This document shows positions 2,360 to 7,525 of a DNA stretch of 32,000 bases, piece after piece; positions within the stretch are counted from its first letter, which is position 1; each line of letters opens with the position of its first letter. Both the position numbers and the translations under genes were made by a program. This stretch comes from Pasteurella multocida (GTDB lineage Bacteria; Pseudomonadota; Gammaproteobacteria; Enterobacterales; Pasteurellaceae): positions 900,001-932,000 of the forward strand of contig NZ_LT906458.1 of assembly GCF_900187275.1 (NCBI RefSeq). Direction: 5' to 3'. The notes below the pieces were generated by a model. That model saw only the letters and a program-made list of their open reading frames with translations. It was not told the DNA's origin and did no database searches.

Positions 2360-2521
2360 ATGTTAATACACGACTACTACAAAGAATATCATCCTGATAA
2401 AGGACGTTCCATTATGGCACATATTCGTAGAACAAGACATATTATGATGCCTTCGTATCGCTCTTGTTTTTCTTATTCAATCTTCAATTCCCAAATATCC
2501 TCATCTCATTACGCTCGCTGA
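2360..2521 (+). CDS. speFL: SpeFL-like leader (arrest) peptide of the speF-potE operon, 53 aa (35 aa if started at ATG 2414)
   Basis: Too short to appear in the ORF track. Sequence: MLIHDYYKEYHPDKGRSIMAHIRRTRHIMMPSYRSCFSYSIFNSQISSSHYAR*. GGAGAG lies 4 nt upstream of ATG 2360. It aligns without gaps to E. coli SpeFL (recalled as MENNSRTMPHIRRTTHIMKFAHRNSFDFHFFNAR) across M-x-HIRRTxHIM....R..F....FN. It contains the HIRRxxH motif, ends in Ala-Arg-stop, and lies 285 nt upstream of speF. Confidence 0.75.
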   Translation: MLIHDYYKEYHPDKGRSIMAHIRRTRHIMMPSYRSCFSYSIFNSQISSSHYAR

Positions 2522-2805: not shown

Positions 2806-4968
2806 ATGCTAAATTTAAAAATTGCATATAGCCCATTAATTCGACCTTATTTTCATACAAATAGAGAACTCGTTTCTGTTCAAGAAACAGATTTCACCGA
2901 CATTGGTGCAATTATCCTGAGTTCTGAAGATATTGAAGATTATATTGATAGTATACAAGCAACTGAATTTAATATTCCGGTCTTTGTTGCTGTCATTGAA
3001 GGTCAATTTTTAGATCCTCAATTCTTTGACAAAGTCTATCACGTTCAAGATCTCAACAACTACGACATCAACCTATACAGTCGCCAAATTGAAACTGCGG
3101 CGCGGTTTTACGAAGAAAAAATCCTCCCACCTTTCTTTAAAATGCTAAGTGAATATGTGGAAATGGGGAATTCTGCTTTTGATTGTCCAGGACACCAAGG
3201 TGGACAATATTTCCGTAAACATCCTGCAGGACGTTATCTCTATGATTTCTACGGTGAAAATATTTTCCGCTCAGATATCTGTAATGCCGATGTAAAATTA
3301 GGCGATTTGCTAATCCATGAAGGAGCCGCTTGTGATGCTCAAAAACACGCTGCTCAAGTCTTTAATGCTGATAAAACCTACTTCGTCTTAAATGGGACAT
3401 CTTCTGCAAATAAAGTCGTCACCAATGCGTTACTCACACCGGGTGATCTTGTGCTCTTTGATCGTAACAATCACAAATCTATCCATCATGGTGCATTAAT
3501 TCAAGCTGGTGCTACGCCTGTTTATTTGGAAACTGCGCGTAATCCATTTGGTTTTATCGGCGGGATCGATAGCCATTGTTTTGATGAAGATTATTTGAAA
3601 TCTTTAATTAAAGATGTTGCGCCTGAAAAATTAACACAAGCACGTCCTTTCCGTTTAGCCGTCATTCAGCTCGGCACTTATGACGGAACCATCTATAATG
3701 CGCGCCAAGTCGTAGATAAAATTGGTCATTTATGTGACTACATCTTGTTTGATTCTGCGTGGGTAGGTTATGAACAATTCATTCCAATGATGAAAGATTG
3801 CTCACCGCTCTTGCTTGAATTAAATGAAAATGATCCCGGCATCATCGTGACACAATCAGTACACAAACAACAAGCCGGCTTCTCACAAGCTTCACAAATT
3901 CATAAAAAAGACAAGCACATTAAAGGTCAACAGCGCTACTGTAATCATAAACGCTTTAATAATGCATTCATGTTACACGCCTCCACCAGCCCATTCTACC
4001 CTCTTTTTGCCACACTTGATGTCAATGCAAAAATTCAAGGTACCCCTGCGGGTATTCGTTTATGGCATGACTGTGTCAAAATCGGGATAGAAGCACGTAA
4101 AATGGTGCTGAATAGTTGTGATCTGATCAAACCGTTTATTCCGCCTTATGTCAATGGCAAAAAATGGCAAGACTACGATACAGAAGAAATGGCAAATGAT
4201 TTAACATTCTTCAAATTCCATGCTGATGATAAATGGCATCAATTTGAAGGTTATGTAGATAACCAATATTTTGTTGATCCATGTAAATTCATGCTAACGA
4301 CGCCGGGTATTGATATTGAAACAGGTGAATACGAAGACTTCGGTGTCCCTGCTACGATTCTTGCTAATTATTTACGTGAAAACGGCATTATTCCGGAAAA
4401 ATGTGACTTAAACTCAATTCTCTTCTTATTAACGCCAGCAGAAACCCTCACCAAAATGCAAAGTTTGGTTGCACAAATTGCGGCATTTGAACAACACATC
4501 AAAAAAGATTCCTTGTTAAAAGAAGTCTTACCAAGTGTTTATTACAACAATGAAAAACGCTATGAAGGTTATACCATCCGTCGTCTTTGCCAAGAAATGC
4601 ATGATTTGTATGTCAGCCGTAACGTGAAAACTTTACAACGCAACTTATTCAGAAAAGCAACCTTGCCTGAATATGTGATGAATCCACATCAAGCTAATCT
4701 TGAATTTGTTCGTAATCGTGTAGAACTGGTTCCACTAACCGAAATCGTTAATCGCATTGCGGCAGAAGGAGCACTTCCTTATCCACCGGGTGTGCTTTGT
4801 GTCGTACCGGGTGAAAAATGGAGTCAGACTGCACAGGAATATTTCTTAGCACTCGAAGAAGGCATCAATTTATTACCAGGTTTCGCACCAGAAATTCAAG
4901 GGGTATATCTACAACAAGATGCAGATGGACGTATTCGTGCTTATGGCTACGTATTAACTGAAAACTAA
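2806..4968 (+). CDS. speF: Inducible ornithine decarboxylase (PLP-dependent, fold-type I Orn/Lys/Arg decarboxylase)
   Basis: 720 aa, nearly colinear with E. coli SpeF, e.g. FDCPGHQGG, KTYFVLNGTSSANKVV, FDRNNHKS, and QSVHKQQAGFSQ carrying the PLP lysine. AAGGAG lies 6 nt upstream of the ATG, and potE follows directly. Confidence 0.97.
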   Translation: MLNLKIAYSPLIRPYFHTNRELVSVQETDFTDIGAIILSSEDIEDYIDSIQATEFNIPVFVAVIEGQFLDPQFFDKVYHVQDLNNYDINLYSRQIETAARFYEEKILPPFFKMLSEYVEMGNSAFDCPGHQGGQYFRKHPAGRYLYDFYGENIFRSDICNADVKLGDLLIHEGAACDAQKHAAQVFNADKTYFVLNGTSSANKVVTNALLTPGDLVLFDRNNHKSIHHGALIQAGATPVYLETARNPFGFIGGIDSHCFDEDYLKSLIKDVAPEKLTQARPFRLAVIQLGTYDGTIYNARQVVDKIGHLCDYILFDSAWVGYEQFIPMMKDCSPLLLELNENDPGIIVTQSVHKQQAGFSQASQIHKKDKHIKGQQRYCNHKRFNNAFMLHASTSPFYPLFATLDVNAKIQGTPAGIRLWHDCVKIGIEARKMVLNSCDLIKPFIPPYVNGKKWQDYDTEEMANDLTFFKFHADDKWHQFEGYVDNQYFVDPCKFMLTTPGIDIETGEYEDFGVPATILANYLRENGIIPEKCDLNSILFLLTPAETLTKMQSLVAQIAAFEQHIKKDSLLKEVLPSVYYNNEKRYEGYTIRRLCQEMHDLYVSRNVKTLQRNLFRKATLPEYVMNPHQANLEFVRNRVELVPLTEIVNRIAAEGALPYPPGVLCVVPGEKWSQTAQEYFLALEEGINLLPGFAPEIQGVYLQQDADGRIRAYGYVLTEN

Positions 4969-4980
4969 ATCATTAACTAA

Positions 4981-5010
4981 AAAAGTACAGTATGCATTTA
5001 CTGTACTTTT
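4981..5010 (+). other. Perfect 10-bp stem / 10-nt loop hairpin in the speF-potE intercistronic spacer
   Basis: AAAAGTACAG tatgcattta CTGTACTTTT. The T-run is part of the stem, and the potE SD (GAGGA 5013-5017) follows immediately. Confidence 0.5.
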
Positions 5011-5024
5011 ATGAGGATACAATT

Positions 5025-6338
5025 ATGAGTGCAAGAAATAATAAAATTGGTGTTGTTCAACTCACTATTCTTACTATGGTTAACATGATGGGCTCAGGCA
5101 TCATTATGTTACCCACAAAATTGGCAGAAATTGGTACCATTTCAATCTTATCGTGGTTAGTAACTGCCGTTGGTTCTACTGCACTGGCTTATGCCTTCGC
5201 ACAATGTGGTATGTTTAGCAAAAAATCCGGTGGTATGGGTGGCTATGCCGAATATGCTTTCGGTAAAGCAGGGAATTTCATGGCGAACTATACTTATGGT
5301 GTTTCATTGGTCATTGCTAACACAGCCATTGCGATTTCCGCAGTAGGTTATGGTTCCGAATTACTTGAGGTAAGCCTCTCCCCTGTTGCGATCGCTGGCT
5401 GGACAATTATCACTTTATGGCTTGCGACGTCCCTTAACTTTGGGGGAGCTCGTATTACAGGTAATATTAGTTCATTTACCATTTGGGGTGTCATTATTCC
5501 GGTGGTTGGTTTATGCATTATTGGCTGGAAATGGTTTGATGCCGACATGTATATCAATGCTTGGAACCCACATCATGTGCCGACGTTTGAAGCAATTGGG
5601 GTGTCTATTTCCATGACATTATGGGCATTCCTTGGCTTAGAATCTGCCTGTGCAAATACCGATGTGGTCGAAAATCCAGAACGTAACGTACCCATTGCGG
5701 TACTCGGCGGCACCTTAGGCGCAGCCGCGATCTATATCGTGTCAACCAATGTGATTGCCGGTATTGTACCGAATATGGATTTGGCTAATTCAACCGCGCC
5801 TTTCGGATTAGCTTTTGCTCATATGTTTAATGAAACAACGGGTAAAATTGTGATGGGCTTGATGGTACTCTCTTGCTTTGGTTCACTCCTCGGCTGGCAG
5901 TTCACCATTGCTCAAGTCTTCAGAAGCTCTGCTGAAGAAGGCTATTTCCCTGCCTTTTTCAAGAAAGTAACAAGCAAAGATGCACCAATCATCGGCATGG
6001 TGACAATTACAGTGATTCAAAGCTTGTTATCCTTAATGACGATCAGTCCATCCTTAAACAAACAATTTAATGTATTAGTGGATCTTGCCGTCGTCACGAA
6101 CGTTATCCCTTATATTCTTTCGATGGCTGCATTAATGGTGTTACAAAAAGTGGAAAAAGTCCCGGCACAGAAAGCAAAAATCACGACATTTGTCGCCTTT
6201 ATTGGCTCCGTGTACAGTATTTATGCACTCTATGCGGCAGGACAAGAACCGATGTTATATGGTTCAATTGCCACCTTTATTGGTTGGACACTATATGGTT
6301 TTGTGTCAGATAAATTTGATATAAAAGCCAAAGTCTAG
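5025..6338 (+). CDS. potE: Putrescine/ornithine antiporter (APC superfamily)
   Basis: MSARNNKIGVVQLTILTMVNMMGSGIIMLPTKLAE... is nearly identical in pattern to E. coli PotE. I moved the start from the track's 4992 to ATG 5025, which has GAGGA 7 nt upstream and matches the E. coli N-terminus. Confidence 0.95.
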   Translation: MSARNNKIGVVQLTILTMVNMMGSGIIMLPTKLAEIGTISILSWLVTAVGSTALAYAFAQCGMFSKKSGGMGGYAEYAFGKAGNFMANYTYGVSLVIANTAIAISAVGYGSELLEVSLSPVAIAGWTIITLWLATSLNFGGARITGNISSFTIWGVIIPVVGLCIIGWKWFDADMYINAWNPHHVPTFEAIGVSISMTLWAFLGLESACANTDVVENPERNVPIAVLGGTLGAAAIYIVSTNVIAGIVPNMDLANSTAPFGLAFAHMFNETTGKIVMGLMVLSCFGSLLGWQFTIAQVFRSSAEEGYFPAFFKKVTSKDAPIIGMVTITVIQSLLSLMTISPSLNKQFNVLVDLAVVTNVIPYILSMAALMVLQKVEKVPAQKAKITTFVAFIGSVYSIYALYAAGQEPMLYGSIATFIGWTLYGFVSDKFDIKAKV

Positions 6339-6520: not shown

Positions 6521-7525
6521 ATGCCACTCAATTTACGTCATCGTCATTTCTTGCGTTTAATGGATTTCACGCCAACCGAAATTCAATTCCTACTCGACCT
6601 CTCTGCCAACTTAAAAAAAGCAAAATATACCGGAACAGAACAACCTCGTTTGAAAGGGAAAAATATTGCCTTAATTTTTGAGAAAACGTCAACACGCACG
6701 CGCTGTTCATTTGAAGTGGCAGCGTATGATCAAGGGGCAAATGTCACTTATATCGGTCCAAGTGGTTCACAAATTGGTCATAAAGAATCAATGAAAGACA
6801 CGGCTCGAGTTTTAGGCCGTATGTATGACGGAATTCAATATCGTGGTTATGGACAGGAATTAGTCGAGATTCTCGCACAGTACTCAGGCGTTCCTGTTTG
6901 GAATGGGTTAACTGATGATTTTCATCCAACACAAATTCTTGCTGATTTTCTGACAATGTTAGAACACGGTGAAGGCAAACGTCTTAATCAAATGAAAATG
7001 GCCTATTTGGGTGATGCCAGAAATAACATGGGAAATTCTTTTGTTGAAGGTGCGGCATTAATGGGCATGGATCTCCGTTTAGTCGCGCCTAAAGCCTATT
7101 GGCCAGAACAAAAACTGCTTGATGAGGTCGCAGAAATGGCGAAGAAAACTGGCGCAAAAATTACCTGTACAGAAAACGTAGAGGAAGGGGTGAAAGGTGT
7201 TGATTTCCTTTACACCGATATTTGGGTCTCCATGGGCGAGCCTGAAGAAGCCTGGGAACAGCGCATTAACTTAATGAAACCATACCAAGTCAACAAGGCG
7301 TTACTTGAAAAAACAGGTAATCCAAAAGTGAAATTTATGCACTGTTTGCCTGCTTTCCACGATGAAAATACAACGGTCGGTAAAGAAATGGCGCAAAAAT
7401 ATGGTATGAACGGTCTTGAAGTCACCGATGAGGTATTTGAATCAGATGCCTCCATCGTGTTTGATGAAGCAGAAAACCGTATGCATACAATTAAAGCAGT
7501 GATGGTGGCAACGTTAGGTCAGTAA
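6521..7525 (+). CDS. argF: Ornithine carbamoyltransferase
   Basis: 334 aa with the canonical [21 protein letters not shown] and HCLPAFH motifs. It is nearly colinear with E. coli ArgI/ArgF. GAGGAG lies upstream of the ATG. Confidence 0.95.

Follow-up and report, generated by a model that had tools for sequence, protein, structure and literature searches.

SpeFL is among the few cases in which the ribosome itself serves as the sensor of a small molecule, and the speF-potE genes that it precedes have been linked to virulence and acid stress. To our knowledge, SpeFL has been studied only in its 34-residue Escherichia coli form. In the stretch of Pasteurella multocida DNA analysed here (32,000 nt of contig NZ_LT906458.1, positions 900,001 to 932,000; hereafter the window), the corresponding reading frame runs on for eight codons beyond the point at which the E. 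coli peptide ends. The locus raises the question of where a ribosome translating this longer leader would stall in response to ornithine, and how such a stall would be passed on to speF.

The leader ORF and its family

The ORF lies on the + strand at positions 2360–2521, with its ATG at 2360, its TGA at 2519–2521 and 53 codons that translate to the 53-aa peptide MLIHDYYKEYHPDKGRSIMAHIRRTRHIMMPSYRSCFSYSIFNSQISSSHYAR. A Shine-Dalgarno sequence, GGAGAG (2350–2355), ends 4 nt before the ATG, and an in-frame internal ATG (M19, 2414–2416) offers an alternative start that would give 35 aa; an earlier note on this DNA had described these elements, and they are read in the sequence as it gave them. The 35-aa version beginning at M19 also occurs in public annotations (P0042). 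A pN/pS of 0.21 for codons 1–13 (four Pasteurella-group loci), together with the conservation of GGAGA followed by ATG in the loci of P. canis, Bisgaard taxon 45 and Conservatibacter, supports 2360 as the true start. Initiation at 2414 is disfavoured, because the Pfam profile described below includes residues 14–18, because residues 1–13 are under purifying selection, and also because E. coli SpeFL lacking residues 1–7 no longer arrests (10.1101/604074). With a start at 2360, 20 residues lie ahead of H21, as the N-terminal sensor hairpin requires; a start at 2414 would leave too few.

The earlier note had presented the ORF as absent from the ORF track. This is right for the first-stage track, but as a claim of novelty it was overstated, since public annotation already names the ORF SpeFL and the peptide lies well within the Pfam model. 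The identical 53-aa protein is listed as "MULTISPECIES: leader peptide SpeFL [Pasteurella]" (UniProt Q9CML4, Q9CML4_PASMU) and is found on at least 1000 contigs. The speFL ORF at 2360–2521 is thus already known and annotated, and is no discovery. A literature search found no paper linking SpeFL with Pasteurell*, and the two papers found to name both SpeFL and Haemophilus deal, by title and abstract, with other subjects.

The peptide matches the Pfam family PF10940 ("Leader peptide SpeFL") at 102.2 bits (E 1.3e-29, cut-off 25), with residues 14–53, tail included, filling profile positions 1–40 of 40. E. coli SpeFL pairs with profile positions 6–31 only and, at 23.8 bits against the 102 of the window peptide, falls under the cut-off. 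Evidently the long form, with its tail, served as the basis of the model, given that the window peptide spans it entirely and the E. coli peptide only in part. PF10940 was formerly DUF2618. Both founding SpeFL papers equate the family with DUF2618 and describe it as conserved in gamma-proteobacteria (10.1101/604074; PMC6386406). No NCBIfam model matched the peptide, the lone hit being a spurious relaxase match (E 0.17).

The E. coli sequence given in the earlier note is correct: MG1655 b4803 translates to MENNSRTMPHIRRTTHIMKFAHRNSFDFHFFNAR, and the SpeFL chain in PDB 6TBV/6TC3 has 34 residues. The gap-free alignment claimed with it holds in two programs, phmmer pairing chain residues 6–33 with window residues 17–44 (E 8e-4) and MAFFT returning the same register for 17 homologues. 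With E. coli SpeFL (b4803; PDB 6TBV/6TC3) and Salmonella orf34 the P. multocida peptide shares the Pfam family, the HIRRxxH motif, the phenylalanine F37 (E. coli F26), the sensor-effector spacing without gaps, a place upstream of speF-potE, consecutive Arg codons, a CU-rich stretch before the stop and a stop codon within a hairpin. It differs from E. coli SpeFL in its length (53 vs 34 aa), in 11 extra N-terminal residues that include a conserved Y-x-P-x-K-G-R-S block, in eight additional codons, not conserved, that separate the last conserved residue from the stop, in a Gln at the position of the terminal E. coli Arg and an Ile at that of F30, and in a much weaker stop hairpin (-7.2 vs -15.2 kcal/mol). 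The Haemophilus influenzae peptide (64 aa, P0019, annotated 'leader peptide SpeFL') has the same core, KGRS[IL]MAHIRRTRHIMMPS[YH]RSCFSYSxF, a +8 tail, a stop in a hairpin and the same place upstream of speF, whereas its tail sequence (NKPSNTAL vs ISSSHYAR in the window), its N-terminal extension and its far stronger hairpin (16 bp) set it apart.

Conservation was assessed in 80 speF loci, one genome per species. An ORF with HIRRxxH lies upstream of speF at 31 Pasteurellaceae loci (31 of the 33 with enough upstream sequence) and at 32 Enterobacterales/Aeromonas/Plesiomonas loci, and an alignment-based profile search gathered 230 proteins. Within 900 nt upstream of speF, no HIRRxxH ORF was found in Pasteurella sp. 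PK-2025, at the Firmicutes speF copies (Propionispira, Selenomonadaceae, Neobacillus, Clostridiaceae) or at several Yersinia/Serratia loci that are seemingly second copies; the loci without one include L037–L039, L055 and L069 and, among those of Yersinia/Serratia, L041, L043, L048 and L051. The Pfam match, the HIRRTRH motif, the position and the conservation in Pasteurellaceae all bear out the earlier identification of a SpeFL-type leader of speF-potE, and, judged by its sequence, 2360–2521 is the P. multocida speFL, a member of the SpeFL family. The contrary reading, a functionless chance ORF in AT-rich intergenic DNA, has nothing in its favour except the small size of the frame and deserves next to no credence; it is refuted by the Pfam E-value of 1.3e-29, by a pN/pS of 0.12 across genera and by the fixed place upstream of speF.

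Core, tail and selection

The ornithine-recognition motif, HIRRTRH, has a role known from E. coli and occupies codons H21–H27 (2420–2440). In the alignment of 17 representatives M19, H21, I22, R23, R24, H27, R34 and F37 are invariant. The codons of R24 and R26 are AGA, which accounts for 10% of the Arg codons in the window. The equivalent of the effector domain, codons I28–Q45 (2441–2494), corresponds without gaps to E. coli residues 17–34. Within it F37 (E. coli F26) is invariant, Y39 takes the place of F28 and F42 that of F31; I41, at the position of F30, is hydrophobic and non-aromatic, a partial departure from the aromatic effector core. The E. coli counterparts of Y39, I41 and F42 (F28, F30 and F31) make stacking contacts with U2586, G2505 and A2062 (10.1101/604074).

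Selection was estimated by the Nei-Gojobori method, with pairwise counts among ten Pasteurellaceae loci whose tails are +8 codons long. The core K14–Q45 has a pN/pS of 0.12 (pS 0.66, with synonymous sites near saturation) and the motif H21–H27 one of 0.08. By these counts, purifying selection is strong up to Q45, the equivalent of the last E. coli residue. The continuation of the frame for eight codons past the E. coli end, as the earlier note had it, is confirmed; this tail, ISSSHYAR (codons 46–53, 2495–2518), is translated and weakly constrained, its pN/pS of 0.66 being close to neutral vs the 0.12 of the core.

The P. multocida frame spans 102 nt (33 residues) from its motif His codon through the stop, against 78 nt in the E. 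coli-type geometry. A distance of exactly 78 nt, His codon through stop, is found at all 32 Enterobacterales/Aeromonas/Plesiomonas loci, and in 38 protein clusters the stop comes directly after 25 residues from the motif His. This geometry, which characterises the Enterobacterales-type subgroup but is no property of the Pfam family as such, is the only feature of the E. coli subgroup that the window peptide lacks. Tail lengths among Pasteurellaceae are -1 (Seminibacterium), +3 (an Actinobacillus MAG), +6 (A. delphinicola), +7, +8, +9, +11 and +15 codons (a Mannheimia), with a mode of +8; on this comparison a tail is usual for the family and not peculiar to the window. V. cholerae has a tail of +4 vs 0 in V. 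mimicus, the peptides being otherwise near-identical, and a Shewanella has one of +5. Downstream of each of these two tailed genes, in V. cholerae and in the Shewanella, comes an ornithine decarboxylase of 720 aa.

From genus to genus the tails show no relationship in sequence. Ala-Arg-stop is the ending of P. multocida and P. canis alone, and elsewhere the tails end in SH, VS, IV, FI, AL, FS, LI and others. The earlier note had remarked that the frame again ends in Ala-Arg-stop, as it does in E. coli; the ending is indeed present, but as a signal it fails, being common to P. canis only. Because the tails of other genera end differently, this second Ala-Arg-stop looks coincidental and carries no weight. 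The first tail codon, I46, is ATA (2495–2497), which makes up 6% of the Ile codons in the window and would stand in the A site if Q45 is in the P site; it is also ATA in P. canis, and this codon is absent there in other genera.

Public assemblies hold frameshifted or stop-loss variants of speFL as well. These are P0003, P0008 and P0033–P0039 in P. multocida, with further such variants, probably of Enterobacter type, in P0076, P0083 and P0092. In stop-loss clusters of 4–10 members the stop has become Gln (…FNARQSFDF…) and the ORF is lengthened by ~40–50 residues. Such variants may be natural stop-to-sense experiments or sequencing errors.

Where the ribosome would stall

In E. coli, the sensor of SpeFL binds ornithine in a fixed rRNA pocket, and ornithine-dependent toeprints are seen with codon 33 and with codon 34 in the P site (10.1101/604074). 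The two toeprints place a block of peptide-bond formation, as well as a block of release, within the known behaviour of the family. Ornithine-dependent, puromycin-resistant arrest has been shown only for E. coli SpeFL (10.1101/604074). For P. multocida the earlier note had left two options, an arrest point moved to a sense codon or a distance from sensor to peptidyl-transferase centre that is longer by eight residues, and the comparative data favour the first. The predicted arrest site comprises codons S44, Q45 and I46 (2489–2497), the equivalents of E. coli codons 33, 34 and stop; ornithine would most likely arrest elongation when residue 44 or 45 occupies the P site and the A site holds a sense codon. 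We infer this from the gap-free spacing of sensor and effector, the end of selection at Q45 and the free length of the tail. In Seminibacterium, the stop takes the position of residue 34, which fits a stall while residue 33 occupies the P site.

The explanation that we favour overall, with moderate confidence, joins an ornithine stall at S44/Q45 to attenuation that is probably Rho-dependent. Nascent SpeFL in the exit tunnel would capture L-ornithine via HIRRTRH and so stall its own ribosome. The stalled ribosome and any queued behind it would cover the C/U-rich, G-free 3' half of speFL, whereby transcription termination in the 284-nt leader would be prevented and speF-potE expressed. Without ornithine, the tail would be translated and the hairpin at the stop codon opened, and termination followed by departure of the ribosome would expose the Rho loading region.

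The hairpin that contains the TGA has 8 bp (2509–2527, -7.2 kcal/mol, z -2.2), and 5 of 200 shuffles fold as well. A hairpin enclosing the stop is present in most Pasteurellaceae, in a Shewanella and in E. coli; it is very strong in Haemophilus (16 bp, z -6 to -9), and the E. coli hairpin, which begins at codon 33, has a z of -4.7. The weakness of the P. multocida hairpin beside these counts against the explanation favoured above. The position of the hairpin shifts together with the stop codon rather than with the peptide core. The idea that the tail parks the hairpin beyond the leading edge of a ribosome at codon 45 was rejected, the distance from core to hairpin ranging from ~5 to 29 nt across species; what is conserved is only that the stop codon lies inside a hairpin, not the distance of that hairpin from the core.

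Two further points speak against a stall at codon 44/45: the hairpin tracks the stop, and the +8 length is modal in several genera, so that tail length may be under some constraint. The stop-codon hairpin of E. coli is occupied by the stalled ribosome, and a hairpin that moves with the stop would therefore fit arrest at the stop itself. Arrest at the TGA as in E. coli would put 33 instead of 25 residues between the His and the peptidyl-transferase centre, with sensor and effector in another register or more compacted, and it would block the action of the release factor. The retention of a stop-enclosing hairpin, shifted along with the stop, is the main point for it, to which the +8 tail in most Pasteurellaceae genera and the recurrence of the Ala-Arg ending in P. 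multocida and P. canis may be added. We nevertheless consider it rather unlikely, as tails vary from -1 to +15 within one family and from 0 to +4 between two Vibrio species, the tail is near neutral (pN/pS 0.66) with unconserved terminal residues, and sensor and effector are spaced as in E. coli. That the long form is arrested at its TGA, which would require a nascent-chain fold, and perhaps an ornithine pocket, unlike those of E. coli, is disfavoured and seems unlikely to us.

A different doubt concerns ornithine itself. The long-tailed peptides might no longer be stalled by it, and might act instead through ordinary coupling of translation and transcription or through arginine sensing at the consecutive Arg codons, a mode suggested by the documented regulation of Salmonella orf34 via codons 12–13 (PMC6386406), by the conservation of R23–R24 and by the use of the minor codon AGA for R24. 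Purifying selection, however, acts on the whole 32-residue core and on every residue of the E. coli ornithine arrest, well beyond the Arg pair, and a mechanism based on Arg codons would have no need for a conserved Phe/Tyr effector core, which makes this reading improbable.

A stall at the end of the core would have a precedent in the tryptophan-sensing leader TnaC, a family in which arrest at a stop codon and arrest at a sense codon both occur, as seen when the Proteus vulgaris and E. coli forms are compared. The sense-codon arrest of P. vulgaris TnaC is given here after the account in PMC3902921, which cites Cruz-Vera et al. (2009, J Bacteriol 191:7001). By analogy, both TnaC and SpeFL would control Rho-dependent attenuation. 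TnaC has no sequence relationship with SpeFL and responds to another ligand; the analogy is one of mode, not of membership. Another relevant case is Salmonella orf34W35, in which the stop is changed to Trp and 23 codons are added, so that a sense codon follows residue 34, formally as in the natural tailed forms. In this mutant, basal expression of speF is raised and control by arginine abolished (PMC6386406). These data cover arginine, with no ornithine response in Table 4, and hence do not settle whether arrest occurs without a stop (PMC6386406).

Proposed attenuation, the operon and its control

The candidate Rho loading (rut-like) region is a G-free, C/U-rich stretch of 46 nt at 2467–2512 (codons 37–51), the second-longest G-free run within 2340–2806, and its base composition is consistent with Rho loading. 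Counted from the His codon, the 60 nt between +40 and +100 contain 18 C and 4 G, and a bias of C over G is common to all 11 other Pasteurellaceae loci profiled. In Salmonella, a CU-rich stretch ahead of the stop has been proposed as the site for Rho (PMC6386406). Base composition and the analogy with E. coli and Salmonella suggest that termination in the P. multocida leader, too, is probably Rho-dependent.

The stall could also act as proposed while attenuation depends on a weak intrinsic terminator and not on Rho. A second weak hairpin (2535–2566, -8.7 kcal/mol, z -1.8) is followed by TTTTTT (2571–2576), and a small hairpin with a T-rich stretch 15–60 nt past the stop occurs in the window and, by eye, in several other Pasteurellaceae leaders. 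The T-run starts 4 nt past the weak stem, however, the element is not conserved in sequence, and a terminator scan found no intrinsic terminator on the + strand. T-rich runs are to be expected in a leader of 71% A+T, the 2535–2566 hairpin would be out of reach of a ribosome stalled at codon 45 or 53, and the comparison revealed no alternative pairing that is conserved, so that we regard an intrinsic terminator as unlikely. A large long-range terminator formed by GCUCGC (2513–2518) and GCGAGU (2561–2566), which a ribosome standing at the stop would break up, was discarded, as this pairing is not the predicted minimum-energy fold and the partner is absent in P. canis. An Rfam search of 2050–2850 in E-value mode matched no family, and an alignment of the leaders of five genera showed little conservation except in the ribosome-binding region of speF, with no attenuator structure derivable from it.

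Another element, a hairpin or DNA palindrome with -11.9 kcal/mol and a z of -2.8, lies at 2742–2773, ~20 nt before the Shine-Dalgarno sequence of speF. Compensatory changes are seen in five of its six consensus pairs among 15 Pasteurellaceae, with a weak consensus energy. It could be an RNA element that acts on the translation or stability of speF, or an operator.

The inducible ornithine decarboxylase gene speF (2806–4968, + strand; TIGR04301, 1376 bits vs a cut-off of 1310) has the Shine-Dalgarno sequence AAGGAG at 2794–2799. The spacer between speFL and speF measures 284 nt vs 257 nt in E. coli; the arrangement described in the earlier note stands, and its figure of 285 nt is corrected by one. 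The putrescine-ornithine antiporter gene potE follows at 4992–6338 on the + strand (NF007938, 796 bits). The ORF listed from 4992 is matched by the PotE profile from residue 12 onwards, and the real start of potE is probably the ATG at 5025 (MSARNNK…). On the same strand after potE lies an ornithine carbamoyltransferase gene (6521–7525; NF003286, 567 bits), which brings three ornithine-handling genes next to one another.

Upstream, a perfect palindrome of CRP/FNR type, TGTGATGGATATCACA (2240–2255), is found ~105 nt before the speFL ATG and is likely to be an activator site of the speFL-speF-potE promoter. At nine of 12 other Pasteurellaceae loci there are near-matches with 1–2 mismatches, 170–245 nt before the His codon, and these sites of the relatives are FNR/CRP-hybrid versions (TTTGATAATGATCACA and similar). 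The exact TGTGA-N6-TCACA did not recur at the homologous place in the other loci.

Three relatives carry tetranucleotide repeats right after the Shine-Dalgarno-preceded ATG of speFL, namely Avibacterium volantium with (CAAA)x19, A. paragallinarum with (CAAA)x8 and Rodentibacter pneumotropicus with (CATA)x17 (tracts at L005:2077-2160, L033:2163-2202 and L035:2041-2117). In each of the three genomes, this ATG and the HIRR core lie in different frames. The arrangement looks like slipped-strand phase variation of leader translation, and hence of speF-potE expression. The speFL of P. multocida is without a tetranucleotide tract.

Only the Enterobacterales/Aeromonas/Plesiomonas type of SpeFL has its stop codon at a constant position, and Pasteurellaceae, V. 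cholerae and a Shewanella carry 3–15 unconstrained codons after the core. If the stall were at the TGA, sensor and effector would have to work with eight more residues (-1 to +15 in the relatives) before the peptidyl-transferase centre. If, as we favour, the stall comes at the end of the core, SpeFL would, like TnaC, span termination arrest and elongation arrest, and the tails would make up a natural length series with which to dissect how the catalytic centre is made unresponsive to release factors as well as aminoacyl-tRNA by a compacted peptide. Arrest by SpeFL would bear on the control of speF-potE in both Pasteurella and Haemophilus.
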